64,000 bases of DNA from Gemmatimonadota bacterium. Lineage in GTDB: Bacteria; Gemmatimonadota; Gemmatimonadetes; Gemmatimonadales; Gemmatimonadaceae. This document shows positions 1-12,769 of the stretch, one piece after another. Both the position numbers and the translations under genes were made by a program. Numbering within the stretch: the first letter of the stretch is position 1; every line of letters begins with the position of its first letter. The stretch spans positions 32,001-96,000 of the forward strand of contig JAZJZK010000015.1 in assembly GCA_040389905.1 (NCBI GenBank), read 5' to 3'. The notes under the pieces are model-generated. The model made no database searches, had not been told where the DNA came from, and saw only the letters and a list, made by a program, of their open reading frames with translations.

Positions 1-158
1 CAGCGAATGTCGCGCTCGACCGACCAATATCCTCGATCGGCAGCGGCGGCGAGGCGGACATAGGCGTGACGCGGTGTCGTTAACGGGTGCAGTGACTTGG
101 ATGTCATCCCGACTCGCTGCGCTTGCTCGGGGTGACAACGCTCGATAGCCGCGCGCAT
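1..158 (-). CDS. 5' part of next operon gene, possibly ferritin-like/diiron enzyme (runs off window)
   Basis: ATG at 158 just after ligase stop; open frame MRAAIERCHPEQAQRVGMTSKS...RGYWSVERDIR to the edge; W-S-x-E-x-D-I resembles N-termini of AurF/acyl-ACP desaturase-like proteins. Confidence 0.4.
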   Translation of the reverse strand, partial: MRAAIERCHPEQAQRVGMTSKSLHPLTTPRHAYVRLAAAADRGYWSVERDIR

Positions 159-160
159 GA

Positions 161-1069
161 TCATGTTGAGCTCAGGAGTTGAGGTTGCGGGGCGAGCGAC
201 GGCCAGTTGCGCGCGTCGGGTCCATGGGCAACGAGGAACGCAAGCATCCAGCGATCGATGCCATACGCGACGCAGGCGCTGTGGGCCGGCGCACCGTCGA
301 TAGCAATCGCAAACGCGCGGCCGAAGAAGTCGTCGTGGAGATTGAAGGACGCAGCAGCGACGCGTTCGTCGCCGAGATCGAGCAGCAATTCCTGCTTCAA
401 GCCTTTCACTTGCTGGAGCAGTTTCCTTCCCCGCGCAGTCGACGCGAAGAACGGGTCGGTCGCCTGTTCCAACGTCGCGGAGAGGCCGAGCGATTTTGCG
501 AGCGCGATGCCACGATCAGCCCCGCGTGCGCGAAACGCGTGTGTTGTCGCGGCAGTACCGAGGCACACGCCTTCGCGCATCGTGAATGCCCACGCGCGTG
601 CGAGGGGGCGGAGCCGCGCGCCCTCGTGGCGCCAGCAGGTACACTGCAGCGTGACCACAAAGGGCGCGTCGAGTTCGCGGTCGGCGAGCCCGGCGTACAC
701 ATGGTAGCACGCTGCGGGCGGCAACGCTGCCTCGGCGGGCGCGCAGGCGGCACGCGCGGCAGTCACAGGATCGCCGCTGTCCGCGACTGTCTCCAGCATG
801 TCTTCGCGGAGATGCGCCGCGAGTGTGAGCCATTGCGGGAATGACGCGAAGTAACTCGCGCGCGCCAGTGTCGAGAGCGCGACCACTGGTGGCGGCGCCC
901 ATTCCTCGCATGGTTCGCTGTCGGTACACCCGGCGGTTTGTGTTATGACTGCTTCGAGCGCGCGAAAGAGGTGCAGCGTGTCGCCGCGAAAGCCGGTCAC
1001 GCCTGCACCACTCTCGAGCAGGTCGCCACGCGCTCGGAGCGCATGCACGACGCGTTCAGCGTTCTGCAT
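161..1069 (-). CDS. Amino acid:[carrier protein] ligase (atypical seryl-tRNA synthetase catalytic-core homolog)
   Basis: Class II aaRS motifs PAACYHVY, CWRHE..FTMRE, ATDPFF, SFNLH..FFG, HSACVAYGIDRW; no tRNA-binding domain; GGAGG before ATG 1069. Confidence 0.85.
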   Translation of the reverse strand: MQNAERVVHALRARGDLLESGAGVTGFRGDTLHLFRALEAVITQTAGCTDSEPCEEWAPPPVVALSTLARASYFASFPQWLTLAAHLREDMLETVADSGDPVTAARAACAPAEAALPPAACYHVYAGLADRELDAPFVVTLQCTCWRHEGARLRPLARAWAFTMREGVCLGTAATTHAFRARGADRGIALAKSLGLSATLEQATDPFFASTARGRKLLQQVKGLKQELLLDLGDERVAAASFNLHDDFFGRAFAIAIDGAPAHSACVAYGIDRWMLAFLVAHGPDARNWPSLAPQPQLLSST

Positions 1070-1337
1070 CGAGACCTCCGGCAAAGAGCGTCGCGATTCG
1101 CTCTGGCGTTCCGAAGTTGTCGGTGCGGATCAGTGCGTCGGGAATTTCAGCACCGATCGCGCGCTCCGTCCATGCAATCAGCTCGAGAATACGCAACGAG
1201 TTGATGAGTCCACCCACGAAGAGTGGCGTGTCGGCGGAGATGACAATGCCGTCGACCGCAACGCGCGAGTTGAGCCAATCCAGCAGCTCGTCGAGGAAGC
1301 TCGCGCGGATATCGTTGCCCACGACGCTCGCGCTCAT
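1056..1337 (-). CDS. Acyl/aminoacyl carrier protein
   Basis: 93 aa; DTPLFVGGLINSLRILELI..E..IGAEIPD..I..DNFGTPERIA; ATGA overlap with upstream reductase. Confidence 0.85.
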   Translation of the reverse strand: MSASVVGNDIRASFLDELLDWLNSRVAVDGIVISADTPLFVGGLINSLRILELIAWTERAIGAEIPDALIRTDNFGTPERIATLFAGGLDAER

Positions 1338-2479
1338 GCGGCCACCTCGGACAGCCCGGCGACACCACGCCAGGAAGTCGCTTCGAGGTGGTCGATCATA
1401 CGTCCCCAATATTCGCGAACCTGTGGCGCGGGAGCTCCGAGAAGTTCGGTCGCGCGCGCCGTTACGAACTCCTTGGGAAGGCCGAGTTGTGGCAGGAAGA
1501 ACGAGAGTGCCTGCGTCACCTGCCGTAGGCGCGCGTGCCCTGTTTCCTCGATTGCACTCGCGAAGAGCTCCCACGTGGCAAGATCGCCGAGCGACGGTGC
1601 AGCGATGCCGCGCCGGCGCCAGTTGATGTCCTGAGACCACCGCGCGTAGCTCTCGTCGAGCAATTCGCTGAGTGGAATGGCGCCCGCGCCGGCGCACAGG
1701 TGTACTGTTTCGCCGTCGACGGCATCGCGCAGCGCAATGCGCGCAATGCCGTCCGCCACGTAGTCCGCCGTGACGACGTCGAGTGTCGATCCAGCGCCGC
1801 CGGGAATCATCGCGGCGAAGCCATCGTGGAAAAGGCGAAGGGCGCGGTGAATGACGTTGCGCTGCGTTACCACTCCGGACGCGTCGTCGCACGCGACGGT
1901 GCTGGAACGCAGAATCACGACGTCGCGTCGTGCGGCGCGGACAAGTGCCTCGGCTTCGGTCTTCGACTGCTCATACGCATTGACCCAGCCGATATCCGCC
2001 GTCGAGGCTCCCTCGGCGGCCTCCACAATGCGTCCCGTTCGGCGACCCGCGACGAAGGCCGTGCTCACGTGCGCGAGCCGCGTGACATGCGGGCAGTCCG
2101 CAATCACGTCGAGGAGGTGCCGCGTCCCATCGCGATTCACGCTGCGAGCGAGGTCGAGTGGCCGCGAGAACGTCGTGTCTGCCGCGAGATGCACCACCGC
2201 GCTCGTGCTTTGTGCGACCCATGCACGCGATGCCTTCGTGAGTCCGAGGCCGGGCTGCGTCACGTCGCCGTCGAGGATGGTGACGTCGCTCGGAATGCGC
2301 AGGCGGCTCGACAGCTCAAGCCACCGCGCGCGACTGCGTACCAGGACCGCAATGGCCGGCGGCGATTCACACGCTGCCCACTGTTGAAGCACCAGTCGAC
2401 CGAGCGCGCCCGAGGCGCCAGTGACGAGCACGCCGCCGCTCGCGTGCGCGAGATGGTTGTCACGATTCGCGTGCATCAT
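1334..2479 (-). CDS. Thioester reductase / fatty acyl reductase-like SDR (NAD_binding_4)
   Basis: TGASGALG, GDVTQPGLGL, HLAADT, HVSTAFVAG, YEQSK. Confidence 0.85.
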   Translation of the reverse strand: MMHANRDNHLAHASGGVLVTGASGALGRLVLQQWAACESPPAIAVLVRSRARWLELSSRLRIPSDVTILDGDVTQPGLGLTKASRAWVAQSTSAVVHLAADTTFSRPLDLARSVNRDGTRHLLDVIADCPHVTRLAHVSTAFVAGRRTGRIVEAAEGASTADIGWVNAYEQSKTEAEALVRAARRDVVILRSSTVACDDASGVVTQRNVIHRALRLFHDGFAAMIPGGAGSTLDVVTADYVADGIARIALRDAVDGETVHLCAGAGAIPLSELLDESYARWSQDINWRRRGIAAPSLGDLATWELFASAIEETGHARLRQVTQALSFFLPQLGLPKEFVTARATELLGAPAPQVREYWGRMIDHLEATSWRGVAGLSEVAA

Positions 2480-3474
2480 ACCTCCAGGGCCAGCCCACTC
2501 CAGTGGGCGCCGTATCCGTACGAGAAGAGGAGCGCGCGATCACCGGGGCGCAGTGCGCCAGTCGCGAGTGCATCGCGGAGATTGATGAAGTTGTCGCCGG
2601 CCAGCGTGTGGCCATGGCGGGCCACGTTCTCCGACCAGAGTCGTGCGCGCGGAAGCCCAGCGAGACGAAGCAGGATGTCCCAGCTGCGCTCACTGACGTT
2701 GTGCGGGAGTACCCAGTCGACGTCGCTCGCACACCAGTTCGCGCTTTCGAGCGTGCGCCGAATCGCGTGGACGGCCGTTGGGAAATACGACGCCACGACT
2801 TCTTCGCGCATCGCAGCCGCGTCCCAGTAGTAGCCCTTGGTGATCGTCGCCGCGCCGGCGATGCGATTGCGTGCCCCGCCGCGCTCGAGCAGCACGGCGC
2901 ACGCGGCGTCCGAAGTGCAGTTGTAGATCGCCTCTCGACCCGCGAGGAGGGGATAGAATTCGCTCGCAACGCACAGGGCGCGGTCGATTCCTTCGGCAAC
3001 CATCATGGCTCTCGCGACGCGGATCGCGCCGAACAGTGTTGCGCACGCCATTTGGTCGAGTGCGAGCACGGCAGCGTTTTCGAGCCCGAGTTCGTACTGG
3101 AGCCTCGTTGCCGGAAAGCGGAAGCGATTCGCGGTGCACAGGCCGGCCGCGCCTTCCGCCGCGTTGTTGTGCGACGCGAAGGCCATCGAGCTGGGCGTGC
3201 CGCCATAGATGAGGAGTCCGATGCTCGTTGGATCGAGCTGTTCCTCCCAGATGAGGTTGCAGGCCGCACTCCGCGCGAGATCGTATGGCGTCTCGTCGGT
3301 CGCGACATGCACGGAGCCAAAGCCGAAGCGCTCGAGCATCGCGTGGTCGCTTTCGAGGGCGTTGTCGTCGCCGAGCTCGCTGACGGTCCGGCTTGTCGCG
3401 GGAAAGACGTGCGAAGTGGCGCGGACCGAGACGGACTCGTGGGGCTGGGGCACGTTGGCTCCGGGGGTAGTCAC
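2476..3474 (-). CDS. 3-oxoacyl-ACP synthase III-like condensing enzyme
   Basis: QMACATL (Cys), SDAACAVLL, LPHNVS (His), HGHTLAGD, GYGAHW; FabH-type layout. Confidence 0.85.
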   Translation of the reverse strand: MTTPGANVPQPHESVSVRATSHVFPATSRTVSELGDDNALESDHAMLERFGFGSVHVATDETPYDLARSAACNLIWEEQLDPTSIGLLIYGGTPSSMAFASHNNAAEGAAGLCTANRFRFPATRLQYELGLENAAVLALDQMACATLFGAIRVARAMMVAEGIDRALCVASEFYPLLAGREAIYNCTSDAACAVLLERGGARNRIAGAATITKGYYWDAAAMREEVVASYFPTAVHAIRRTLESANWCASDVDWVLPHNVSERSWDILLRLAGLPRARLWSENVARHGHTLAGDNFINLRDALATGALRPGDRALLFSYGYGAHWSGLALEV

Positions 3475-3578
3475 GGAGCGAAAGGTCGTGTCGGGGTGGT
3501 AAACGGATGATCCGTCAGGTTACGTAGAAGGCCGCGCAACCCTACGTAGACGGACTCCCGGCGTCCGTGCGCCGGACA

Positions 3579-3806
3579 TCAGCTGTGACAGGTGCTCAGG
3601 AGCCAGCCGCAGCCTACAGATTCTCAGGGGGTGTGGCGCGCGGGTGGCGCTTCACCAAACTCGCAGGGCCTAGGTGCGGGCCCTTCGCGGAGTTTATCCT
3701 CGAGGAGCGCGAGCGACGAAGGGCTCAGGCGACAAAGCGGGCGGAACGCCACACCCCCTGACGATCTGATGGCTGCGGCTGATCACTGAGCACCTGTCGC
3801 ATCTGA
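3579..3806. mobile_element. MITE-like element with 60-bp imperfect terminal inverted repeats and a nested REP
   Basis: 3579-3638 matches the reverse complement of 3747-3806 at 50/60; REP-like unit at 3673-3735. Confidence 0.6.
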
Positions 3807-3839
3807 GGCTGGTGGGGCCGGGGACCGTGCCCGCGAAAG

Positions 3840-4655
3840 TCAGTTGTGACTTCGCATCAGCAGCCAGACCCCGCTCACCAGCCCAATAACCACAACGGTC
3901 GCGCGCACGTACTGCTGCGGCACTCGCTGCGCGCCTTTTGACCCCAGGTACCCGCCCGCCATCGCCGCCACTGCCATTGTGAGCGCCACCGGCCAGTCCA
4001 CGATCCCGCTGAGGGCAAAGCTGACGGACGCGACCATGTTCATGCAGAACCCGCCCCAGTTCTTGAGGCCGTTCATGCGATGGAGGTTCGTGAAGCCCAT
4101 GAAACCGAGCGCCGCGAGCATGAGGATTCCCACGCCGGCGCCGAAGTATCCCCCGTACACGCCGATCAGGAATTGCCAGGCGAGGAGCATCGGCGTAGGG
4201 CCGGCCGCCGTGAGGGCGGTGTCGTCGAGCGTCGTCGCATGATGTCGCCGGATCCAGCCGAGCAACGGGCGCTGAACGACGAACAGCATGGTGGCGCCGA
4301 GGACCAGCCAAGGCACCACGAAGTTGAACGTCGCCCCCGGCGTGTGGAGGAGGAGCCACGCGCCGAAGCCACCCCCAAACAGGGAGGGGAACGGTAGCGC
4401 AATCGCCCATTTTCGTGCGCCGGTGAGCTCACCGCTGTAGCCGAACATGCTCGTCAGGGCGCCGGGAACGAGTGCCACGGTGCTCGTCGCATTGGCGGCG
4501 AGCGGCGGCAGTCCGGCCGCGACGAGTGCAGGAAAGGTGAGGAGTGTGCCGCCACCAGCGATGGCGTTCATGACACCGCCGAAAAACGCCGCTGCGCCGA
4601 TGAGCGCCCAGCGGCCATTCGTGAACGCTTGTGCGGGATCTTGGAAATGGATCAG
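3840..4655 (-). CDS. TauE/SafE (TSUP) family transporter; start uncertain
   Basis: GVMNAIAGGGTLLTFPAL, GVYGGYFGAGVGIL, multiple TM segments. Confidence 0.85.
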   Translation of the reverse strand: MIHFQDPAQAFTNGRWALIGAAAFFGGVMNAIAGGGTLLTFPALVAAGLPPLAANATSTVALVPGALTSMFGYSGELTGARKWAIALPFPSLFGGGFGAWLLLHTPGATFNFVVPWLVLGATMLFVVQRPLLGWIRRHHATTLDDTALTAAGPTPMLLAWQFLIGVYGGYFGAGVGILMLAALGFMGFTNLHRMNGLKNWGGFCMNMVASVSFALSGIVDWPVALTMAVAAMAGGYLGSKGAQRVPQQYVRATVVVIGLVSGVWLLMRSHN

Positions 4656-4829
4656 AAGAGGCTCAGTTCGGGGCTTCGAAGTACGTGCTCGCCGAGCGCG
4701 GGAAGGATAACGCATCGGTGACAGAGAGGCACGCAGCGCAATGCCGTTTGATGCTTCATTCGCATACATTTCGTCACGCGGCGGAGCGCGCGCTCAGCCC
4801 GGATCGACGCATTTCCACGGAGATGGGAC

Positions 4830-6203
4830 ATGAGCACTACGGAGTCGAAGACGGCCGGCGCTGAAGGTGGAGCGCTCGAGATAAAAGATACGCGTACAGG
4901 CACGAGCTACTCGGTGCCCATCATGGCCCCTGGTACGGAGGGCGATACCGCCATTCGCGCAATGGACCTGCGCCAGATCAAGCAGGACGCGGGCGAGTTC
5001 GGGATGATGACGTACGATCCCGCGTTCATGAACACGGCATCGTGCAAGAGCGCGATCACGTTCATCGATGGCGACAAGGGTATCCTGCGCTACCGCGGCT
5101 ATCCGATCGAGCAGCTTGCCGAGAAGGCCAGTTTCCTCGAAGTGGCGTGGCTGCTGCGCAACGGCGAGTTGCCGGACCAGAAGCAGTACGACGACTGGTC
5201 GCACCAGATCACGTACCACACGTACGTGCACGAGAACATCAAGACCTTCCTCACCGGGTTCCGCTATGACGCGCACCCGATGTCGATGCTGTGTTCGTCG
5301 GTTGCCGCGTTGTCCTCGTTTTATCCGACCGCGAAGAACATTCATGATCCGGCAGAGCGCCACATCAGCATCGTGCGCTTGCTCGCCAAGCTGCCGACGC
5401 TCGCGGCGTTCTGCTTCCGTCACGTCAAGGGATTGCCCTTCATCTACCCTGACAACGACCTCGGCTACGTCGAGAATTTCCTCTCGATGGTCGCACGCAT
5501 GTCGGAGTCGAAGTACGAGGGCAACCCCGCATTTGTAAAAGCGCTCGAGGTGCTGTTCATCCTCCACGCCGATCACGAACAGAATTGCTCGACGAGCGCG
5601 GTGCGCGCTGTTGGCAGCTCGCAGGTCGACCCGTTCTCCGCAATTGCCGCGGGTATCGCCGCGCTGTATGGCCCGCTCCACGGCGGCGCCAACGAGCAGG
5701 TGCTGCACATGATCAAGGAGATCGGCGACGTGAAGAACGTGGCCGGCTTCATCGAAGGCGTGAAGGGCGGAAAGGGCAACAAGCTGATGGGCTTCGGCCA
5801 CCGCGTGTACAAGAGCTACGACCCGCGCGCGCGCATCGTGAAGAAGCTCGCGGACGACGTGTTCAAGGTCGTCGGCGTGGACAGGGATCTGGAGATCGCG
5901 CTCGAGCTCGAGCGCATCGCGCTGTCGGACGACTACTTCATCTCACGCAAGCTCTACCCGAACGTCGACTTCTACACGGGGCTCATCTATCGCTCGATGG
6001 CGTTCCCGACGGACTTCTTCACGGTGTTGTTCGCCGTCGCGCGCACGGCGGGCTGGCTCGCGCAGTGGGAGGAGATGCTGAACGACAAGGAGCAGAAGAT
6101 CGCGCGTCCGCGGCAGATCTACACGGGTTACGGCGAGCGGGCATACGATGGCTCGCTCGACTACTCGGCGACGGCGGCACAGAAGGACGCGGTCCGGAAG
6201 TAG
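4830..6203 (+). CDS. gltA: Citrate synthase
   Basis: GILRYRGYPIEQLA, LHADHEQNCST, GPLHGGAN, GFGHRVYKSYDPRA, PNVDFY. Confidence 0.97.
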   Translation: MSTTESKTAGAEGGALEIKDTRTGTSYSVPIMAPGTEGDTAIRAMDLRQIKQDAGEFGMMTYDPAFMNTASCKSAITFIDGDKGILRYRGYPIEQLAEKASFLEVAWLLRNGELPDQKQYDDWSHQITYHTYVHENIKTFLTGFRYDAHPMSMLCSSVAALSSFYPTAKNIHDPAERHISIVRLLAKLPTLAAFCFRHVKGLPFIYPDNDLGYVENFLSMVARMSESKYEGNPAFVKALEVLFILHADHEQNCSTSAVRAVGSSQVDPFSAIAAGIAALYGPLHGGANEQVLHMIKEIGDVKNVAGFIEGVKGGKGNKLMGFGHRVYKSYDPRARIVKKLADDVFKVVGVDRDLEIALELERIALSDDYFISRKLYPNVDFYTGLIYRSMAFPTDFFTVLFAVARTAGWLAQWEEMLNDKEQKIARPRQIYTGYGERAYDGSLDYSATAAQKDAVRK

Positions 6204-6355: not shown

Positions 6356-6751
6356 GTGCTGATCGTCGTCGATCACAACAGCGGCGTTCCGGTTTTTCGC
6401 CAGATCATCGAACAGGTTCGCTTCCACGTGGCGAGCGGCCTGCTCATGCCCGGCGACGAATTGCCATCGACGCGCGGACTCTCGCAGGAGCTTGGCGTCA
6501 ACCCGATGACGGTGAGCAAGGCGTACAGCCTGCTCGAGCAAAACGGACTCGTCGAACGGCGACCGGGATTACCGCTGGTGGTTCGGTCACGCACCGCCGA
6601 TGCGGTGGAGGGTGAGCGACTCACACACCTTCGCGTCGCACTCGAACCAGCGCGGCGCGTGGCCCGCCAGCTCGGCATCTCTCCGACCGAGGCCGCCTCC
6701 GCCTTCCGCGCTCTGCTCGAGGCCACCTCGCCCACTGAGGACGACAAATGA
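6356..6751 (+). CDS. GntR family regulator, YtrA subfamily
   Basis: PVFRQIIEQV..G.L.PGDELPSTRGLSQELGVNPMTVSKAY; short C-domain; heads ABC operon. Confidence 0.92.
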   Translation: MLIVVDHNSGVPVFRQIIEQVRFHVASGLLMPGDELPSTRGLSQELGVNPMTVSKAYSLLEQNGLVERRPGLPLVVRSRTADAVEGERLTHLRVALEPARRVARQLGISPTEAASAFRALLEATSPTEDDK

Positions 6752-7659
6752 CGGATTATCTCAGGCTCGCCGATGTGAGCAAACGCTTCGGCCAGAAGAC
6801 TGCGCTCGACAACGTATCACTCGCCGTTGGTGAGCCGTCGATTCTCGGTCTCGTCGGCAAGAACGGGAGTGGCAAGACGACACTGCTACGCCACATCGTC
6901 GGACTCTACCTGCCCACCAGCGGCGCCTGCACCACATTCGGACGAGCGACCGCCGAGCTTGGCGCAAGGGAGCTCGCGCGCATCGGCATGCTGCACCAAC
7001 ACGACACGCTGATCGGTTGGATGAAAGCCGAGCAATTATTGAACTATGTGGCCAGCTTCTATCGCGTGTGGGATCGCGAGTTGGAGCGACAACTCGTCGC
7101 GATGCTGGAAATCGTGCCGAGTGAGCGCGTCTTGACGATGTCACCCGGCAATCGGCAGAAGCTCGCGCTCGTTATCGCAACGTGCCACCATCCGTCACTG
7201 CTTCTCCTCGACGAACCGCTGAGTGATCTCGATCCGATCGTCCGTCGAGATGTGGTCGAGACGCTGCTCGATCGCTTTCGCTCCGATGAGATGGCCATCG
7301 TGATCTCGTCCCATCTTCTGGACGACGTCGAGCGCATCGCCGACCGCATCGTCTGCCTGGACAAGGGACGCGTCGTCGCTGACGCACCGCTCGACGACCT
7401 CAAGGAGCGGTACGAAGAATGGACCGTCACGTCGCCGAGCGGCACGCTGCCCGCACACTTTGCGGAGCCGTACGTCGTCGCGCAGGAGTCCGATCGAACG
7501 CGCGCACGTCTCACGGTAAAGGACCCAGCGTTGCACCGCGCAACCTTCAGCGCGACGTACGACGGCGAGGTCGAACAACATCCGTTGAATCTCGAGCAGC
7601 TCTTCCGAGTACTCACCGGCGCGACGACGACTCGCCGCGCCGAGGAATCATTGGTATGA
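6748..7659 (+). CDS. ABC transporter ATP-binding protein (YtrB-like)
   Basis: GKNGSGKTT, MSPGNRQK, LLLLDEP, SSH. Confidence 0.93.
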   Translation: MTDYLRLADVSKRFGQKTALDNVSLAVGEPSILGLVGKNGSGKTTLLRHIVGLYLPTSGACTTFGRATAELGARELARIGMLHQHDTLIGWMKAEQLLNYVASFYRVWDRELERQLVAMLEIVPSERVLTMSPGNRQKLALVIATCHHPSLLLLDEPLSDLDPIVRRDVVETLLDRFRSDEMAIVISSHLLDDVERIADRIVCLDKGRVVADAPLDDLKERYEEWTVTSPSGTLPAHFAEPYVVAQESDRTRARLTVKDPALHRATFSATYDGEVEQHPLNLEQLFRVLTGATTTRRAEESLV

Positions 7660-9056
7660 GCGGGCGCATGGTACACGAGCCATCGCGGCGGGTGGCATAT
7701 CCCGGCGGTAACCCCGCGATTGCGTTCTACGGCTACATGTGGCGCCCGTGGATACTGATCGCCGGCATGTACCTGCTCGCGCTGTTTACCACCATGCCGC
7801 TCTGGAGCCTTCCCGAAGATCCTGGTCCCCTGGTTGCGTCATGGCGTGCAGGCGTTTCGTCTCCCGAGGTACTCGTCGCGGTGTGGCGTGAGACGCTCAT
7901 GATACCGTTGGGTGTCGGCATCGCCATTGGTATCGCGACCGGTATGCTCCGATCGCGGCCCTTTGCGTGGACGCTTCCGTCGCTCGATCGACGGTTATTG
8001 GGCGGAGCACTTCCGGTGATGGTACTGCTTGCGGCTGCGATCGCGTTTGCGCACTCGCCGGTCATTGGACTGGTTCCTTCGCTTGCCGCGGCGGGAGTTT
8101 CGCTGCTCGCGTATGCCGTCGGTGCGACGCTCGTGTCTCCGGAATTTGGCAAGGTTGCCCGAACGGTCATCGCCGGCGGCGTGCTTGCGATGGTGCTGCG
8201 TCCCCAGGCATTGGTGGATCTGGCGAGTCGCGCACCGCTCGAGGTAGCGCTTGCGTGCAGCGGTGCAGCCGCGTTGCTGATGGTGCGAGGTGCAACCGCG
8301 ACGGTCGCGCGCGAATATCATCGCGTCGGAGGCGAAGCACTCCAGCATGGGCTGGCGGCGCGACTGGTATTCGGCTCGAAGCGCGAACTACCCCAGTATG
8401 CACCGCTGGAAGCGGATACCCTCGTGGGCTGGTGGCGTGCGGCGAACTATTCAGCCCAGACTGGATTGGGACGACTCGCCGTGCCGGTCGCGTTCATGGT
8501 GTCGTTCGCATACGTCACGGGGAACCCAGCGCTTCTGATCATGTCGATTGCCCTTCCGATGCATGGAATGGGCGTTGGACAGCCGGAGGGACGCCTGCTC
8601 TACCCGTTGTCGCGGGCACGACGCGGGCAACTGGCGTACCTGCGCTCACTCGCACTGATCCTGACATCGACACTTCTTGTTGCGCTCTTCGCGACTCCAC
8701 TCTTTCTGCTGCGACCATTTCCACAGGTGCTCGTGTCAGCAGGGACGCCGAGTGTCAACGTCGCGCCGCTGCTCTGTGCCTGCTTCGCGTGGGCACCGGT
8801 GGCCCACTGGGCTTCAACGCGTCCACCACTCATGGACACGAGACGTCAATACGTTGGCGCGCAGCTCGTGGCTCGCTTCGGCGGTCTCATGGTGTTCCTG
8901 ATCGTGGTGATGTCCACGAGGGGTGCATATCGGGGCTTCGCCGATCGCCTGCCCTTCGCGGTCTGGCTCGTGTCGTTCGGTCTACTCGTGGTGGTGATTC
9001 AGGGGCTCCACTATTTGTTGATTCGGCGAGCGTATGCGAGCAGGGACCTCCTCTGA
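7656..9056 (+). CDS. Polytopic membrane protein, probable ABC permease
   Basis: ATGA overlap with ATPase; many hydrophobic helices. Confidence 0.7.
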   Translation: MSGRMVHEPSRRVAYPGGNPAIAFYGYMWRPWILIAGMYLLALFTTMPLWSLPEDPGPLVASWRAGVSSPEVLVAVWRETLMIPLGVGIAIGIATGMLRSRPFAWTLPSLDRRLLGGALPVMVLLAAAIAFAHSPVIGLVPSLAAAGVSLLAYAVGATLVSPEFGKVARTVIAGGVLAMVLRPQALVDLASRAPLEVALACSGAAALLMVRGATATVAREYHRVGGEALQHGLAARLVFGSKRELPQYAPLEADTLVGWWRAANYSAQTGLGRLAVPVAFMVSFAYVTGNPALLIMSIALPMHGMGVGQPEGRLLYPLSRARRGQLAYLRSLALILTSTLLVALFATPLFLLRPFPQVLVSAGTPSVNVAPLLCACFAWAPVAHWASTRPPLMDTRRQYVGAQLVARFGGLMVFLIVVMSTRGAYRGFADRLPFAVWLVSFGLLVVVIQGLHYLLIRRAYASRDLL

Positions 9057-9091
9057 CGTGAGCAGGCCGCCGTCGCTGTTCGGTGGCGCTG

Positions 9092-10195
9092 CTAGCGTTT
9101 CACGTATGTCTTGCTGAATCCGTTCCTCGCGTTGGTCACAGTAAACGTCCCATTCTCCTGCGCCGAGATCTTGATCCCATAGGCAGGGCTGTGCGTCGGG
9201 TTGCCGGCGCCGCCCGCCCGGCCCTGCGTCAAGATTTTCGCGATCTGCGGCAGCGAATCCACGTTGGCGATGAACATGCCCGCGCTGTTGTGCTCAACGC
9301 CGCCGGCGTACGACCAGTGAATCGTCCAGATGTCCTCGAGTCCCGGCGAGCGGCGGATGGTCTCGAAAGACGTTGGCGCTCCCCCTTTGCGCGTACCGTT
9401 CTGCATCACCGCGACGCGAGGGCGCACCGAATGCACCAGCGCGGGCGAACCTGACTGATCGAGCCCATGGTGCGTGACCATATAGAGGTCCACGGTGCCG
9501 ACTTGATTCTTCGGACAGACGAGATCGAGCTCGTTGTTCCAGAGCAGATCGCCGAGGTCGATGGCGCGAAAGCGGCCGAAGGTGATGACGCTGCCGACGG
9601 ACTGCCCATTATCGTCGGGTGAGGCAGGATCGGGTTTCCGCTGTGTCTCGGCGCAGGTCGCGGCATTGGCCTGCCCGCCACCGGTGAGCGGTGTCGTGAT
9701 CGCCTTGCCCGCCGACGTAACGATACGCCAGTCGAGCCCCTTCACCGGCACGCGATCACCGGGCTTCAACACGGTGTGCTTCGCGTTCGCGTAGAGCCCC
9801 GCGTACGTCTCCGCAAAGCCGGCAACCTGGTCACGTGGCTCGACGTTGGGGCCGTGGTCCATGAAATGGGCGACGGGAATCCGCTTCACGAACTCCGCCA
9901 TGCCGCCGACGTGATCGGTGTGATAGTGGGTGCTGATGAGGTAGTCGACCTTCGTGACGCCCGCCGACGCGAACATCGCGAGAATTCGATCGAGATCGCG
10001 CGCGCCGGGATTGCCCGTGTCGATCAGGACAGTCTCGCCGGACGGGGACACGTAGAGCGTGGCTTTCCCGCCCTCGGTGTCGGCAATGTAGATGTCGAGT
10101 GATTTGACGGCGGGCTTCGCCTGGCTGGACGCCGTGTTCGAGACGCCGGCGAAGGCCGCGACAAGGGCGGCGAGGATGTTTCGTGTGATGCGCAT
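9092..10195 (-). CDS. Secreted metallo-beta-lactamase-fold hydrolase (ComEC/Rec2-like)
   Basis: Signal peptide; LIDTG, THYHTDHVGG, GDL, HHG. Confidence 0.85.
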   Translation of the reverse strand: MRITRNILAALVAAFAGVSNTASSQAKPAVKSLDIYIADTEGGKATLYVSPSGETVLIDTGNPGARDLDRILAMFASAGVTKVDYLISTHYHTDHVGGMAEFVKRIPVAHFMDHGPNVEPRDQVAGFAETYAGLYANAKHTVLKPGDRVPVKGLDWRIVTSAGKAITTPLTGGGQANAATCAETQRKPDPASPDDNGQSVGSVITFGRFRAIDLGDLLWNNELDLVCPKNQVGTVDLYMVTHHGLDQSGSPALVHSVRPRVAVMQNGTRKGGAPTSFETIRRSPGLEDIWTIHWSYAGGVEHNSAGMFIANVDSLPQIAKILTQGRAGGAGNPTHSPAYGIKISAQENGTFTVTNARNGFSKTYVKR

Positions 10196-10279
10196 GCGTG
10201 CAAGCTCCAGTCGTACGTCGGCGGTGGTGCGGCGGAGGAAACTTCCGCCGGACAACCTGCAACGCAGACGCGCGCTGCG

Positions 10280-11089
10280 CTATGACGCGCCGAACAAGCG
10301 GCTGAGCGGCGCGAGAAGGTTTGCCATGGGACCGGCGTCGCTAGTTGGCGGTTCGGCGGCGGGTTCGGCACCACTGGCGAGGAGTTTCATCTTCGGCGCA
10401 GACAACGCCGCTTTGGGCGCGCCCGCCGGCAGCGCGCCCTGCGAAACGGCCACTCGCGCGATTCGTCCAGGCGTCGCGACGGCGTGCCAGCTCGCAAGGA
10501 GTGCGGGCTGATGCTGCGCCTCGTTGCGAACGAGTACACCGAGTACGCGAACGATGGACTTCGCGTCGCGGAGTCGATGGTCAATTCCACTGAGAGCACC
10601 GGCTGCGTGCAATCGCTCCGCCTCGCGGTCGTCATGGGACTTCAGCATCGCGTCAGCCGCCTCGCGGAGTTGCGCGGCGAAATCCTTGCGGATCCCTGCG
10701 GCAATGAACTCGGACGTGTGTGCTTCAGCCACTTCCGCCAAGCCCTTGGCGATGGAGGCGAGTCTCAGCGGGTGCGGATTTCCCCGCGGCATCTGGAACA
10801 CGCGAACCCCTGGGTCGCGCATCAGGACTGATTGCGCGACGGCCACGAGATGCGCCATGTGGTTCTGCACCAGTTGCCTGCGCAGCTCCTGATACCGCTG
10901 GGTCTCGGCTCGCCTGGCGGTCTTGGTACCTTCGTGCGCGATGGCATGCTCATTCAGCATGTCGATGAGTTCATCCAATCGCCGTCGCGCGACATTCGAA
11001 TTGACGCCGGGCAGTTCATCGGCGTGTTGATCGAGAAATAATGCGATGAAGCGGAGCCTCGCGAGCCGTTTCGCCTTGTTTGAGCGCAT
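10280..11089 (-). CDS. Hypothetical alpha-helical protein
   Basis: 269-aa ORF, GAGGA before ATG, amphipathic helical composition. Confidence 0.65.
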   Translation of the reverse strand: MRSNKAKRLARLRFIALFLDQHADELPGVNSNVARRRLDELIDMLNEHAIAHEGTKTARRAETQRYQELRRQLVQNHMAHLVAVAQSVLMRDPGVRVFQMPRGNPHPLRLASIAKGLAEVAEAHTSEFIAAGIRKDFAAQLREAADAMLKSHDDREAERLHAAGALSGIDHRLRDAKSIVRVLGVLVRNEAQHQPALLASWHAVATPGRIARVAVSQGALPAGAPKAALSAPKMKLLASGAEPAAEPPTSDAGPMANLLAPLSRLFGAS

Positions 11090-11676
11090 CGTGTCCTCTA
11101 TCGAATCGGAAGACAGGAGACAAATGGGATGCGGCGTCGCATCTGTGGTTCGGCGCAGAGAATCAGTTCGGCGACAACACGTACGATGGGCGCGCGTCGG
11201 AGTTTCGGCGCAAGGAGCGCCGGAATCGTTGACGCGACGGCGGTGCCAGCCAAAGGTGCGGCTAAACGGTAAAACGTCGCGGCTGGCGTGTCGAGGGGCA
11301 AAGAGGATCGGGTGATGGTTCAGGGCGTGCCACTCGGCGACTCCCGAGGCCGGCGCTGGGATTCCCGGAACGAGGGGTATGATCGGCCGAACGGGCTACG
11401 CATGCCGGCGCACCGCAGGGTGGCATGTTGGTGCGGCACGGGGGCACTCGTGAACGGCTCGTGGGACGTTTCGCACGGGGAGCCGCTCAAGGGGACTGGT
11501 AGAGGGCGTTTGACGTCTGGCCACGGGCCAAGCGAAACCAACGAACGCTGCTATGGAACCAATGTGGCGCGCTGGTGGTCCGAGGAGCGTCGCGCAGGTT
11601 CGGCTATTGGCGCAGCCGGGACCAAGGCTATCCTTTTGATCGGCTCAAACCACCGGCGCTGAGACAGGCGGTCAAC

Positions 11677-12744
11677 ATGCAACGAATGCTCCTCGCGCTG
11701 CTGATGCTACAGGGTGCGGCGCAGCCGGCCCATCCGCCCATCCAGTCAGCCCGGATCGTCGCATTGCTCGAGGGCGCCCGCATCGCCGTCATCAACTCCG
11801 CAGAAGGCACCACGCTGGCAGAGCGTTCGCTCGGCGATACAACAGTATGGAAGAGCGGGCATTCGCTCGGAATCAGTCCGGCCGGCAATCAGGTCTTCGT
11901 TGCGCTCACGTCGCGCTCACAGAAAGAGACGGCGATCATCCGGTTCGATTTGACGGACTACACCGTTCATCAGATTGCGGTCGTCGCCGATCAGTTCGAA
12001 TACCCGTGGCTCGTCGTGGGGCAGAGAACGGGACGTCTGTATCTCACGTCCGACTGGGGTTTTCGCGTGGCCACCGTGGATCCGAAGAAGCCGTCAGAAG
12101 TCGTTCGATACGCTTCAGGCCGAGATACCATTGGATACGGACCGGCGATGTGGTTTGACATCTCGGCGAACGAGGACCGGATGTACGCGAGTTATCACGG
12201 CAACGGACTCCGGGGCAACGGCGGCTTGGACTGGATCGATATCCGGGGCGATTCTCTCTCGATTTGCAGCGAATCACGCCTCCAGAGCGAAAAGCGCGGG
12301 ACCAGTTGCTCGAACCCGCATGGGAGGATGATTCCGTATCGGGATGGGTTCGTCGCCACGACGGGCGGTCGGCTTCACGTCTACAACGCCAAAGGCGAGA
12401 CGATCGCCAAGCACGTGACTGGACTCGGTGACGACCGAAATCATGGGATGGAGTTCGCGCTCGACACCGTGGCTGCGGTGGCATATCCGATTGGGTCGTG
12501 CCGGCGCCCGAATCAGGGCGGCGTCACGCGAGTCGATCTGAAGAATCCGCTGGACTCGACATCGTCCTACCGGGAGCTCGCCGCCACCGTGTGTGGAGAA
12601 CGCGTCGTCGTTTCGCTGGACAGGACGACGTTGGCGATCGCGTCAGGTACCGGTATCACGCTGATGGGCGCCGAAAGTGGAAACGTTGGTCGCAAGTTGA
12701 CGACGAGTGCGCGAGTGGTCGATCTGGCGTTCGTTCGAGACTGA
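11677..12744 (+). CDS. Secreted beta-propeller-like protein, paralog 1
   Basis: Signal peptide; YncE-like strands; long shared blocks with next gene. Confidence 0.7.
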   Translation: MQRMLLALLMLQGAAQPAHPPIQSARIVALLEGARIAVINSAEGTTLAERSLGDTTVWKSGHSLGISPAGNQVFVALTSRSQKETAIIRFDLTDYTVHQIAVVADQFEYPWLVVGQRTGRLYLTSDWGFRVATVDPKKPSEVVRYASGRDTIGYGPAMWFDISANEDRMYASYHGNGLRGNGGLDWIDIRGDSLSICSESRLQSEKRGTSCSNPHGRMIPYRDGFVATTGGRLHVYNAKGETIAKHVTGLGDDRNHGMEFALDTVAAVAYPIGSCRRPNQGGVTRVDLKNPLDSTSSYRELAATVCGERVVVSLDRTTLAIASGTGITLMGAESGNVGRKLTTSARVVDLAFVRD

Positions 12745-12769
12745 ATCCTCGTTCAGGGAGACTGAGCAC

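Follow-up and report, generated by a model that had tools for sequence, protein, structure and literature searches.

A Gemmatimonadota operon with a tRNA-synthetase look-alike in place of a peptide synthetase and its probable lipid-like amino alcohol product

Introduction

The closest described counterparts of the ligase considered here are Bll0957 and Bll6282 of Bradyrhizobium and Atu2573 of Agrobacterium, which it resembles in consisting of a truncated catalytic core of the methanogen-type SerRS, in carrying a Cys/Glu/Cys zinc site, in lacking a tRNA-binding domain and in being encoded beside a dedicated carrier protein (CP) gene. Characterised relatives are described as loading glycine or alanine (PMC5370406), and the biological role of the amino acid:CP ligase family is given as unknown in a 2022 review (PMC9437257). 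The soil Gemmatimonadota operon analysed here begins its biosynthesis with such a tRNA-synthetase look-alike in place of a peptide synthetase, its product is probably a lipid-like amino alcohol, and it offers a testable job for a ligase family that has been left without an assigned role.

Results and discussion

A translationally coupled operon of nine genes has its first half in the window, i.e., the whole stretch of 64,000 nucleotides that was analysed (Table 1). The preliminary description had placed five co-oriented genes with overlapping or abutting junctions there, and their coordinates, all on the minus strand, and their four junctions were confirmed: the KAS/reductase, reductase/CP and ligase/DI1 junctions are ATGA stop-start overlaps (the last at 161-164), and CP and ligase overlap by 14 nt. 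A GGAGG motif precedes the ligase ATG start, the form that spans 161-1069. As had been anticipated, the operon runs beyond the window; in the genome it comprises nine co-oriented genes with overlapping junctions, and the additions to the window set are two ferritin-like diiron proteins (DI1 and DI2), a DUF3419/BtaA-like protein, a tandem GNAT and an MMPL exporter. Four of these genes (DI2, DUF3419, tandem GNAT and MMPL) lay outside the view of the preliminary description, and they shape the interpretation. Family matches agree with the gene identities proposed earlier, and the label NRPS-free extends to the whole operon, as neither a condensation nor an adenylation domain of the NRPS kind was found by Pfam and NCBIfam searches of all nine genes. 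Scores of the ligase, the reductase and the KAS III-like enzyme all lie under the curated NCBIfam cut-offs, which marks these proteins as divergent members. The spacer upstream of the first gene is the sole sizeable gap in the gene string, and a sigma-70 consensus scan of the operon strand gave no promoter match. The TauE gene further upstream (3840-4769) is absent from the operon neighbourhood in every other locus.

Table 1. Features of the operon within the window, in order of transcription after the spacer.
Feature	Position	Strand	Length and remarks
Spacer upstream of first gene	3475..3839	-	365 nt, likely promoter region
KAS III-like gene	2476..3474	-	332 aa
Thioester reductase gene (NAD_binding_4 / SDR), stand-alone	1334..2479	-	381 aa
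Carrier protein (CP) gene	1056..1337	-	93 aa
SerRS-like amino acid:[carrier protein] ligase	161..1084	-	303 aa from ATG 1069, 307 aa from TTG 1084
DI1, 5' end	1..164	-	Start 164, alternative 107; remainder before the window, G000:C15:31352-32164

The gene order is almost invariant across genomes of Gemmatimonadota and 80 contigs from soil metagenomes, with the identical order recurring in L002, L003, L034-L037 and L039. Counting positions relative to DI1 and taking only metagenome contigs long enough to be informative, we found upstream the ligase in 54/56, the CP in 49/49, the reductase in 29/30 and the KAS in 25/25, and downstream DI2 in 58/61, DUF3419 in 38/39, the GNAT in 25/26 and the MMPL in 12/13. 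A six-gene core also occurs alone, and in 3/3 cases an SRPBCC lipid-binding-type gene adjoins this short form. Three genes (KAS, reductase and ligase) are missing from L077 and L090, no DI2 was found in L139 and L142, and L128 is without the last three genes. That independent genomes and metagenome contigs share the order excludes chance; co-occurrence elsewhere had been set beforehand as a test that could refute the preliminary description, and the gene set recurs in both collections. Furthermore, no characterised cluster with this gene set was found in the reachable literature, in keeping with the earlier remark that the combination was not recognised as a characterised pathway. There is little doubt that the locus is a genuine biosynthetic operon, conserved and working with an aminoacyl-CP.

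The CP matches PF00550 with 20.3 bits (E 6.8e-4), just below the cut-off of 20.8, while one orthologue reaches 25.5 bits, and its phosphopantetheine serine, Ser49 of the LINSL motif, is kept in each of the 15 orthologues left after filtering by coverage. The ligase matches NF005479 (E 5.7e-48) and the Bll0957 structure 3mey (E 9.5e-35 over residues 59-297) and has no extra domain in its approximately 303-307 residues, which bears out its placement in the Bll0957-type family. Retention of the Cys/Glu/Cys positions, likewise proposed earlier, was also seen: the PAAC, MRE and HSAC residues align with the zinc-site Cys, Glu and Cys of Bll0957, and Cys126, Glu171 and Cys271 are near-invariant (76/76, 75/76 and 76/76 orthologues). 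In two other genomes (L041 and L042) CP and ligase are fused in frame. Family matches, conserved zinc-site residues and these fusions together support aminoacyl-CP chemistry. The ligase nevertheless differs from the Bll0957 type in scoring far under the equivalog cut-off (163.5 against 357 bits) and in its operon context, where a KAS III, a reductase and a pair of diiron proteins accompany it. Ligases of this kind in other Gemmatimonadota genomes neighbour DUF1839 and an acyl-CoA-dehydrogenase-like gene or belong to glycan clusters.

The reading that we favour is an amino-acid-derived lipid built on a free-standing CP without NRPS or PKS. On balance, an amphiphilic amino alcohol or aldehyde is the somewhat better bet for the product; more tentatively, the FabH-like enzyme may couple the alpha-carbon of the amino acid on the CP to a fatty acyl group, for release by the reductase as a sphingoid-like 2-amino alcohol. 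Family membership underlies steps 1, 4 and 7 of this route, and steps 2, 3, 5 and 6 we infer. In step 1 the zinc-site ligase would activate a small amino acid (Gly, or Ala/Ser) and thioesterify it to holo-CP. In step 2 a fatty acyl-CoA or acyl-ACP would acylate Cys144 of the KAS, which would then attach the acyl group by a C-C bond at the alpha-carbon of glycyl-S-CP itself or of aminomalonyl-S-CP derived from oxidation of seryl-S-CP, and the 2-amino-3-oxoacyl-S-CP would remain on the carrier of the nucleophile, as in the FabH reaction. DI1 and DI2 may then desaturate or hydroxylate the CP-tethered chain or, alternatively, oxidise seryl to aminomalonyl (step 3), and the MxaA-like reductase would reduce the thioester to a 2-amino-3-oxo(or hydroxy)-alkan-1-ol, a sphingoid-like base (step 4), where the six-gene core would stop. 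In the nine-gene form the tandem GNAT may N-acylate or N-acetylate an amine (step 5), the BtaA-like DUF3419 protein may move the 3-amino-3-carboxypropyl group of SAM onto the primary alcohol (step 6), and the MMPL pump would export the product (step 7). An aminomalonyl extender unit has a precedent in the (2S)-aminomalonyl-ACP described for zwittermicin (PMC6164871). Counting against the sphingoid-like route, the operon has no C3 ketoreductase, and no base for a non-decarboxylative condensation was identified.

The KAS carries the Pfam domains PF08541 (E 4e-17) and PF08545, and a profile of 21 orthologues matches FabH structures best (2ebd, E 1.5e-27), followed by PqsC (2.1e-14), CerJ (2.3e-12), and ChlB3 and DpsC (about 1e-10). 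In the alignment, its active site Cys144-His258-His289, kept in 34/34 orthologues, replaces the Cys-His-Asn of FabH; Cys-His-His is the triad of decarboxylating KAS I/II enzymes. A canonical FabH is encoded elsewhere in the genome (G000:C41, 389.9 bits). We count the operon protein as a condensing enzyme because of its FabH-nearest profile, its invariant triad and the housekeeping FabH elsewhere, and the first two of these place C-C condensation on the carrier, judged from sequence, somewhat above amide formation by the KAS. We know of no KAS III that takes an aminoacyl or aminomalonyl thioester as nucleophile.

The main idea of the preliminary description was instead that the KAS III-like enzyme N-acylates aminoacyl-S-CP. 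The diiron enzymes would then modify the acyl chain, the reductase would release an N-acyl amino aldehyde or alcohol (N-acylethanolamine in the case of Gly), DUF3419 would etherify the alcohol, the GNAT would acylate the new homoserine amine, and the MMPL pump would export a two-chain phosphorus-free lipid. This pathway shares its anatomy and conservation with the favoured route, its intermediate is chemically stable, and terminal reductase domains, that of MxaA among them, classically act on an N-acyl-aminoacyl-S-carrier. Acyl-transferring KAS III relatives (CerJ, ChlB3 and DpsC) are also detectable, and such enzymes typically lack the FabH Asn. However, the profile lies nearer to FabH than to either PqsC or the relatives that transfer acyl groups, by at least 13 orders of magnitude in E-value, the replacing residue is an invariant His that gives the decarboxylating triad, and the long form already has a dedicated N-acyltransferase fold in its tandem GNAT. 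To our knowledge, moreover, the acyl transfers of KAS III enzymes go to oxygen and never to nitrogen. We keep this pathway as a serious alternative, though a less probable one than the favoured route.

The reductase belongs to PF07993 (E 1.2e-37) and matches TIGR01746 (E 6.3e-28) under the cut-off of that model. Among solved structures it is closest to the MxaA reductase domain 4u7w (E 4.6e-14), in agreement with the thioester-releasing kind proposed earlier; GxxGxxG is kept in 41/42 orthologues and Thr140/Tyr169/Lys173 in 42/42. An MxaA-like reductase with an intact Thr-Tyr-Lys set supports reductive release.

The term "probable diiron enzyme" had been applied to DI1 when only 35-54 codons lay in the window, from which it could not be read, but the full gene does encode a ferritin-like diiron protein (251-270 aa). 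No Pfam or NCBIfam match was obtained for DI1, including the AurF Pfam family; DesA2 (1za0) was matched at E 1.8e-4. Its predicted model (pLDDT 89.5) has stearoyl-ACP desaturase as top match both in Foldseek (E 3.7e-4) and in VIA, where it reaches Z 19.1 (rmsd 3.2, 234 aligned residues) and the next-ranked entries 16.5; AurF has 13.2 and CmlI 12.5. The modelled fold is nearest to soluble acyl-ACP desaturases, a likeness that fixes no substrate. DI2 is COQ7/rubrerythrin-like and in L041 forms a fusion with a second PP-binding domain. The Glu/His ligand columns are conserved in DI1, and both proteins have full Glu/His sets. These ligands, the desaturase likeness of DI1 and the DI2 fusion support work on a carrier-bound chain.

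The same enzymes could be assigned to a starter-unit pathway, in which the aminoacyl group passes from CP to the KAS cysteine and is condensed with malonyl-ACP, in the way FabH handles unusual primers; housekeeping FAS would elongate it, DI1 would desaturate the acyl-ACP, and the FAR-like reductase would give an omega- or (omega-1)-amino fatty alcohol. Every enzyme would then perform a textbook reaction (FabH-like, acyl-ACP-desaturase-like, and NAD_binding_4 "male sterility" fatty acyl reductase). Gamma-amino thioesters are, however, prone to lactamise, so that the 4-amino-3-oxo- and 4-aminobutyryl thioesters required should form five-membered lactams unless the amine is protected; known pathways protect such intermediates, and the six-gene core is without an amine-protecting enzyme. 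This pathway would also reduce the dedicated CP to a shuttle, although among solved structures the reductase is nearest to an NRPS/PKS-type terminal reductase domain, and the DI2-CP fusion better suits chemistry on a dedicated carrier. We consider it improbable.

Little more than a slight chance is given to a Pvf/Ham-like small signal or metallophore, for which ligase, CP and reductase would form a split A-T-R synthetase. The diiron proteins would N-oxygenate the amino acid on its carrier; the amino aldehyde freed by the reductase would be N-oxidised and would turn into a pyrazine N-oxide, a hydroxamate or a compound of the diazeniumdiolate type, to be acylated and exported under the control of an adjoining regulator. 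The gene set does mirror A-T-R logic, Pvf/Ham-type systems have a diiron oxygenase that works on an amino acid tethered to a carrier, and an AurF-family cluster is among the feature-based look-alikes of DI1. A large ATP-binding LuxR-family regulator (AAA_16-TPR-GerE) lies tail-to-tail with the operon in the genome studied and adjoins it in seven other loci (L034, L035, L070, L072, L078, L128 and L134). MMPL pumps export non-lipid metabolites too, siderophores in mycobacteria among them. On the other hand, DI1 is nearer to acyl-ACP desaturase than to AurF or CmlI and lacks an AurF Pfam match, no aminotransferase or receptor gene is nearby, the KAS is left without a role, and the regulator does not adjoin the operon in L003, L037, L117, L124, L138 and L142, each with at least 3 kb of downstream sequence.

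For the later steps of the favoured sphingoid-like route, tailoring and export are supported by DUF3419, the tandem-GNAT fold, the MMPL pump (Pfam, E 2e-65) and the SRPBCC gene beside the short form. The DUF3419 protein (PF11899, E 1.4e-53) has no NCBIfam match and no solved relative was found for it; its putative BtaA-like function rests on family membership and on the automatic naming of orthologues as BtaA by one source. DUF3419 is described as a domain of betaine-lipid synthases (PMC10685587). The tandem GNAT aligns with MAB_4324 at Z 24.4 and with N-myristoyltransferase at 23.3, but NMT, MshD, Eis and other tandem GNATs lie within a few Z units of each other, and the fold likeness fixes no substrate.

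Comparison with known systems

With FabH, PqsC, CerJ and DpsC the operon KAS shares the thiolase fold domains, and its Cys and first His align with those of FabH; it differs from FabH in its invariant His for Asn, in scoring below all NCBIfam FabH cut-offs and in being an extra paralogue beside the canonical enzyme. The reductase has the NAD_binding_4 fold, the Thr-Tyr-Lys set and the Rossmann motif of MxaA and the Pvf/Ham A-T-R enzymes, and, as in the latter, an amino-acid unit would be activated, tethered and reductively released with diiron oxygenase(s) alongside. Here, in contrast, all parts are separate proteins, the activator is an aminoacyl-tRNA synthetase homologue and not an adenylation domain, and the diiron proteins resemble desaturase and COQ7 types, not AurF. 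With BtaA, the SAM:diacylglycerol 3-amino-3-carboxypropyl transferase, the operon protein has the DUF3419/PF11899 domain in common, but the long form has no BtaB-like methyltransferase beside it, and its acceptor is probably the operon's own alcohol and not diacylglycerol.

Under the favoured reading, the product would have the same 2-amino-3-oxo-alkan-1-ol skeleton, with later N-acylation, as in the serine palmitoyltransferase pathway that leads to sphingoid bases and in the making of bacterial ceramides. This likeness is functional and hypothetical and not one of family membership: the operon is without a PLP-dependent alpha-oxoamine synthase, and the C-C bond would be made by the KAS on a tethered amino acid, with C1 arising from thioester reduction. 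Zwittermicin A biosynthesis loads through an adenylation domain and leaves the oxidations to dehydrogenases, whereas here the loader is an aminoacyl-tRNA synthetase homologue, the only oxidases are the diiron proteins and aminomalonyl-CP is hypothetical. What the two would share is an amino acid held on a free-standing carrier, oxidised there and used as the nucleophile of a ketosynthase.

Organization of the operon

The first 3,474 nt of the window carry five co-oriented genes on the minus strand, for a KAS III (FabH)-like protein (KAS), a thioester reductase (RED), a carrier protein (CP), a SerRS-like aa:CP ligase (LIG) and the beginning of a diiron protein (DI1). The window corresponds to G000:C15:32001-96000 of the source genome. 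Retrieval of the sequence beyond it (G000:C15:20001-38000, locus L001, in which a coordinate equals the window coordinate plus 12000) completed DI1 and added four further genes, for a second diiron protein (DI2), a DUF3419 protein, a GNAT protein and an MMPL transporter. The preliminary description had proposed five tightly joined genes at window 1-3474, forming an NRPS-free operon that runs past the window, and the coordinates, the overlaps and the downstream sequence all agree with this. Stop and start codons overlap as ATGA at the KAS/RED, RED/CP and LIG/DI1 junctions, LIG, whose ATG follows a GGAGG motif, begins 14 nt inside the CP gene, and the 365 nt located 5' of the KAS gene represent the sole sizeable gap. 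The Pfam/NCBIfam scan revealed no NRPS or PKS domain (condensation, adenylation, KS-AT) in the nine operon products or in the neighbours scanned, and a consensus scan of window 1-4900 for promoters and terminators gave no match on the operon strand.

Genes of the operon and the two genes that follow it (window coordinates, or contig coordinates where preceded by C15)
Feature	Coordinates	Strand	Remarks
KAS III-like gene	2476-3474	-	thiolase-fold KAS III domains
RED, NAD_binding_4 reductase	1334-2479	-	
CP	1056-1337	-	93 aa
SerRS-like LIG	161-1069 or 161-1084	-	303-307 aa
DI1	start at 164 (or 107), extending beyond the window; full gene C15:31352-32164	-	251-270 aa
DI2	C15:30793-31350	-	about 178-185 aa; weak COQ7/rubrerythrin matches, E 3.5e-5
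DUF3419 protein	C15:29669-30823	-	PF11899 E 1.4e-53, residues 27-340
GNAT	C15:28542-29693	-	383 aa; tandem GNAT model
MMPL transporter	C15:26293-28599	-	MMPL E 2e-65
AAA_16-TPR-GerE (large LuxR-type) regulator	C15:23183-26227	+	1014 aa; tail-to-tail with the MMPL gene
Protein with faint GDSL/SGNH signal	C15:22154-23305 (L001 2154-3305)	-	350-383 aa; E about 0.008

On the other side of the operon, the window holds ordinary neighbours, namely a TauE/SafE-family permease (3840-4769, minus strand) and, as assigned from translations read by eye, a citrate synthase (4830-6203, plus strand) and a GntR-type regulator accompanied by two ABC transporter genes (6356-9056, plus strand). None of these neighbours travels with the operon, and TauE was rejected as an operon member, having no match at any related locus.

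Conservation of the gene order

A single-protein search of genome contigs with LIG returned 3 loci, and this search recovered the same gene order in two Gemmatimonadota MAGs (L002 and L003). A homologue of LIG was found in 28 of 401 Gemmatimonadota genomes, and 20 regions from 19 of the genomes with a homologue were compared by tblastn. The synteny counts are those of tblastn rather than of gene calls, because the codon-usage gene caller misses some short or overlapping genes. The full order KAS-RED-CP-LIG-DI1-DI2-DUF3419-GNAT-MMPL was present in the genomes G251, G363 and G272 and likewise, with fragmented genes, in G271, and G171 followed the gene order up to the end of its contig. The six-gene core KAS-RED-CP-LIG-DI1-DI2 (the short form) occurred by itself in G040 and G228, and the contig of G313 ended after the first four genes. 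The remaining LIG homologues, with about 25-36% identity, were located in other gene contexts.

A scan of metagenome contigs with a DI1 profile kept 80 loci, each 60-78% identical to DI1 and each flanked by genes of this set. Counted for each gene on informative contigs only, i.e., those long enough, the region 5' of DI1 contained LIG in 54/56, CP in 49/49, RED in 29/30 and KAS in 25/25 cases, and the region 3' of DI1 contained DI2 in 58/61, DUF3419 in 38/39, GNAT in 25/26 and MMPL in 12/13. The genes thus co-occur elsewhere, in an order kept both in Gemmatimonadota genomes and on metagenome contigs, as the reading of these genes as one operon had anticipated. A few loci depart from this order. 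L077 and L090 carry a GDSL-like gene, then CP and then DI1, without KAS, RED and LIG. No DI2 was detected in L077, L139 and L142, in the latter two of which none lies between DI1 and DUF3419. L128 is devoid of DUF3419, GNAT and MMPL and has a LuxR-type regulator directly after DI2.

The LuxR-type regulator accompanies the operon in some lineages only: it was found beside the operon in L034, L035, L070, L072, L078, L128 and L134, whereas 3 kb or more of flanking sequence lacked it in L003, L037, L117, L124, L138 and L142. A gene with a GDSL/SGNH signal lies divergently upstream of KAS in L034, L071, L072, L074, L078 and L083 and beyond the regulator in the source genome, and may be part of the cluster.

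The short form has neighbours of its own. An SRPBCC (Polyketide_cyc2) gene adjoins it in 3/3 cases, an Sfp-type PPTase is encoded near it in G040, and in G228 a Methyltransf_20 gene is inserted between LIG and DI1. Its representatives in L041 (G228, 7332-12967) and L042 (G313, 7194-10344) are divergent. In L039 (G271:C1:107500-127400), 7/9 operon genes (all except CP and DI2) were each broken into two or three tblastn segments, with one in-frame TGA among the matches, which looks like either assembly indel errors or decay of the whole operon.

Amino acid ligase and carrier protein

Profile and PDB matches place the catalytic core of LIG among the class II aaRS enzymes, in the methanogen-type SerRS lineage. 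The protein matched type-2 SerRS models (E 2.2e-12 and 1.4e-9) and a type-2 SerRS structure (3w3s, E 1.2e-6), the solved Gly:CP ligase Bll0957 (PDB 3mey, E 9.5e-35 over residues 59-297) and the amino acid-[ACP] ligase model NF005479 (E 5.7e-48). Since the score of 163.5 bits against NF005479 misses the equivalog cut-off of 357, LIG is, judged by its sequence, a divergent subfamily of the Bll0957-type family and not an equivalog. Its PAAC, MRE and HSAC motifs align onto Cys, Glu and Cys of Bll0957, its zinc ligands, and these positions are retained in 76/76, 75/76 and 76/76 orthologues. The Pfam/NCBIfam scan found no second domain in LIG, thus no tRNA-binding domain. The alignment, the orthologue counts and the domain scan hence bear out the earlier description of a SerRS-like ligase with Cys/Glu/Cys kept and the tRNA-binding domain lost.

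CP is encoded directly upstream of LIG and is present on each of the 49 informative contigs, and its Ser49 is invariant in 15/15 orthologues. CP and LIG form a single reading frame in G228 (L041) and G313 (L042), and these fusions independently support their partnership. Going by the families of the two proteins, an amino acid would be activated and tethered to CP. Characterised aa:CP ligases load Gly or Ala, according to a passage of PMC5370406.

Elsewhere in the phylum, ligases of this family occur in two further settings. In L045-L052 (G295, G371, G311, G202, G382, G184, G308 and G363), a second conserved arrangement places an acyl-CoA-dehydrogenase-like gene directly 5' of the ligase in 8/8 loci and a called DUF1839 gene downstream of it in 7/8, after which, contig permitting, come genes for a GH2-like protein and a double alpha/beta hydrolase. 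On the upstream side 3 loci have a PPTase gene, and in 2 loci a CP was called. The dehydrogenase beside the ligase recalls on-carrier aminoacyl oxidation. In L040, L043, L044 and L053 the ligase lies within glycan gene clusters, where, as in L044:6535-10964 (G265), ligase and CP are combined with an MBOAT membrane acyltransferase and a GNAT protein, or with hexapeptide transferases, an arrangement that looks like Dlt-like aminoacylation of a surface polymer.

Ketosynthase and reductase

KAS matched PF08541 (E 4e-17) and PF08545 (E 5.9e-5), and a profile built from 21 orthologues was closest to true FabH structures (2ebd, E 1.5e-27), with PqsC (2.1e-14), CerJ (2.3e-12) and DpsC (about 1e-10) far behind. 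In the profile alignment Cys144 and His258 fall on the Cys and His of FabH and His289 falls on its Asn, all three residues being invariant in 34/34 orthologues. The Cys-His-Asn triad of FabH is therefore not found in KAS, whose Asn position is His289 throughout these 34 orthologues. The scores of KAS lie under the curated FabH cut-offs (TIGR00747, 56 bits vs 292; PRK09352, 70 bits vs 249), and a canonical FabH (389.9 bits) is encoded on a separate contig of the genome, C41. No KAS fusion was found among longer proteins, which is weak evidence.

RED matched PF07993 (E 1.2e-37), with GxxGxxG in 41/42 and T140/Y169/K173 in 42/42 orthologues. Among solved structures the terminal reductase domain of MxaA (4u7w, E 4.6e-14) came closest to RED, whose score against TIGR01746, 98 bits, is under the cut-off of 213. 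Within what family membership can show, the thioester would be released reductively.

Diiron proteins

No Pfam/NCBIfam match at E 0.01 or better was obtained for DI1, which does not belong to the soluble acyl-ACP desaturases (PF03405) by sequence, and its distant sequence match was DesA2 (1za0, E 1.8e-4) over the second half of the protein. The DI1 model (pLDDT 89.5) had stearoyl-ACP desaturase as the top Foldseek match (E 3.7e-4, TM about 0.58). In the VIA comparison with representatives, the stearoyl-ACP desaturase 1oq4 gave Z 19.1 (rmsd 3.2, 234/251 residues aligned), DesA2 and R2lox 16.5 and an aldehyde-deformylating-type protein 15.9. The residues E88, H95, E144, E174 and H177 are invariant and E61 and E91 nearly so, and the model has a ferritin-like fold with two Glu and two EXXH-type ligand motifs, the putative metal-binding residues. 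The label of a probable diiron enzyme given earlier to the fifth gene thus fits the full gene, but could not have been read from the 35-54 codons inside the window.

Of the products considered, an N-oxygenated signal or metallophore of the Pvf/Ham kind is the least probable. AurF (Z 13.2, rank 24) and CmlI (Z 12.5, rank 32) were among the VIA matches of DI1, below the desaturase, and one AurF-named cluster appeared among its feature-based look-alikes; DI1 had no match to PF11583.

Relatives of DI1 numbered 1080 at E 0.001 or better, with at least 63% identity among the 120 matches listed, and they form a small family: in a set of 1.84 billion representatives, 285 clusters reached E 0.001 and 59 reached 1e-30. 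The cultured Archangium gephyra has two proteins of this family, P0394, whose cluster representative P0249 matched the DI1 profile at E 1.1e-70, and P0256 (E 4.7e-54), and may provide an experimental handle. Only weak matches in 12/401 genomes (best E 2.4e-16) were obtained in a search of Myxococcota for DI1 orthologues, and the Archangium protein had no match in 251 genomes of one order, perhaps not that of Archangium. No relative of DI1 was found in the genome of the fetched locus L004 or in a plasmid collection.

In DI2, the residues E24, E54, H57, E104, E135 and H138 are invariant, and the DI2 of G228 contains a C-terminal PP-binding domain (E 2.1e-11). The predicted DI1-DI2 complex scored 0.00, which bears neither for nor against binding. 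To the extent that family membership can show it, two O2-dependent diiron enzymes would act in the pathway.

Downstream genes with putative tailoring and export roles

The GNAT model (pLDDT 91.7) contains two GNAT domains in one chain and matched N-myristoyltransferases (NMT) in Foldseek (E 5e-14, TM 0.60); the VIA Z scores were 24.4 for MAB_4324, 23.3 for NMT, 19.0 for MshD, 18.5 for Eis and 14.1 for FemX. The modelled fold points to N-acylation of an amine, without fixing the acyl group. DUF3419 is presented in a passage of PMC10685587 as a domain of betaine-lipid synthases. The DUF3419 protein of the operon had no NCBIfam match and no solved relative, and one source automatically names its orthologues BtaA; it is a putative BtaA-like enzyme that would move the 3-amino-3-carboxypropyl group from SAM onto a lipid alcohol. 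The MMPL pump probably exports a product, as far as its family can show. MMPL pumps are not restricted to lipids.

Proposed route

In the route that we tentatively prefer, as a possible one, the operon would make a sphingoid-type base by C-C condensation. LIG would tether glycine, or serine, as aminoacyl-S-CP. In a FabH-type ping-pong reaction KAS would carry the fatty acyl group on Cys144 and take the CP-bound unit as nucleophile, either glycyl-S-CP or the aminomalonyl-S-CP to which seryl-S-CP would be oxidised. The resulting 2-amino-3-oxoacyl-S-CP would remain on CP, within reach of the desaturase-like DI1 and of DI2, and RED would convert the CP-bound product to a sphingoid-type 2-amino-alkan-1-ol. 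Where all nine genes are present, the tandem GNAT would next N-acylate the amine, the BtaA-like DUF3419 protein would place a homoserine head on the primary alcohol, a ceramide-like analogue of the diacylglycerol substrate of BtaA, and MMPL would export the lipid.

That KAS uses aminoacyl-CP as a condensation nucleophile is inferred, and to our knowledge no KAS III is known to take such an aminoacyl or aminomalonyl nucleophile. The preliminary description had raised an amide route to an N-acyl amino alcohol, which we consider unlikely; the C-C route is favoured over it because KAS is nearest to condensing enzymes, with a Cys-His-His set. In the FabH reaction the product is left on the carrier of the nucleophile, and the C-C route therefore explains a dedicated CP together with a reductase of the type terminal in NRPS/PKS. 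The fusion of DI2 to a carrier domain as well suggests chemistry on the carrier. Use of an aminoacyl group as starter unit for fatty acid synthesis is very improbable and ranks below the C-C route, because its intermediate is prone to lactamise and the intermediate of C-C condensation is not. The C-C route is further ranked up by the precedent for an aminomalonyl-ACP nucleophile, described in a passage of PMC6164871. The remaining probability belongs to chemistry outside all of these routes.

Several observations count against C-C condensation. LIG, RED and KAS all score below the curated family cut-offs, and the variant loci L077, L090, L139, L142 and L128 stand against the route as well. Fold matches do not settle substrates, and the operon lacks a ketoreductase for C3. 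Taken as a whole, it is rather doubtful, though conceivable, that the six-gene core makes sphingoid-type long-chain bases independently of PLP, with an aaRS relic that tethers Gly or oxidised Ser, a Cys-His-His KAS that condenses its alpha-carbon with a fatty acyl group and RED giving the C1 alcohol, and that the nine-gene form would supply the outer membrane of soil Gemmatimonadota with a phosphorus-free lipid that resembles ceramide and bears a homoserine head.

Comparison with known systems

No description of this gene combination was found in the literature searches. They yielded no paper uniting DUF3419/BtaA, thioester reductase, acyl-ACP desaturase and MmpL, nothing relevant among the papers listed on SerRS-like enzymes with a ketosynthase, reviews and structural citations only on aa:CP ligases, a single review on aminomalonyl, glycyl-ACP, KAS III and sphingoid, and taxonomic descriptions only on Gemmatimonas aminolipids. 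OlsH/OlsI was rejected as a match, since it appears to be a different, GH3-based pathway.

We rate the operon as a carrier-protein-templated biosynthesis begun by an aaRS relic. If true, the proposed route would be a new way to make amino-alcohol lipids with neither PLP enzymes nor NRPS, and it would operate in a hard-to-culture phylum that is common in soils. The biochemistry and structure of aa:CP ligases have been known since 2010. A passage of a 2022 review (PMC9437257) nevertheless describes their biological role as unknown. Here, an aa:CP ligase belongs to a compact pathway that is strongly conserved and has been sampled widely, which would give these ligases a concrete, testable function.

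By sequence, the LIG-CP pair is made up of divergent members of a known family, and each of the other parts diverges within a known superfamily. KAS shares the thiolase fold of FabH and has Cys-His-His instead of Cys-His-Asn. LIG has in common with Bll0957 the truncated SerRS core and the Cys/Glu/Cys positions, and differs from it in a score far below the equivalog cut-off.
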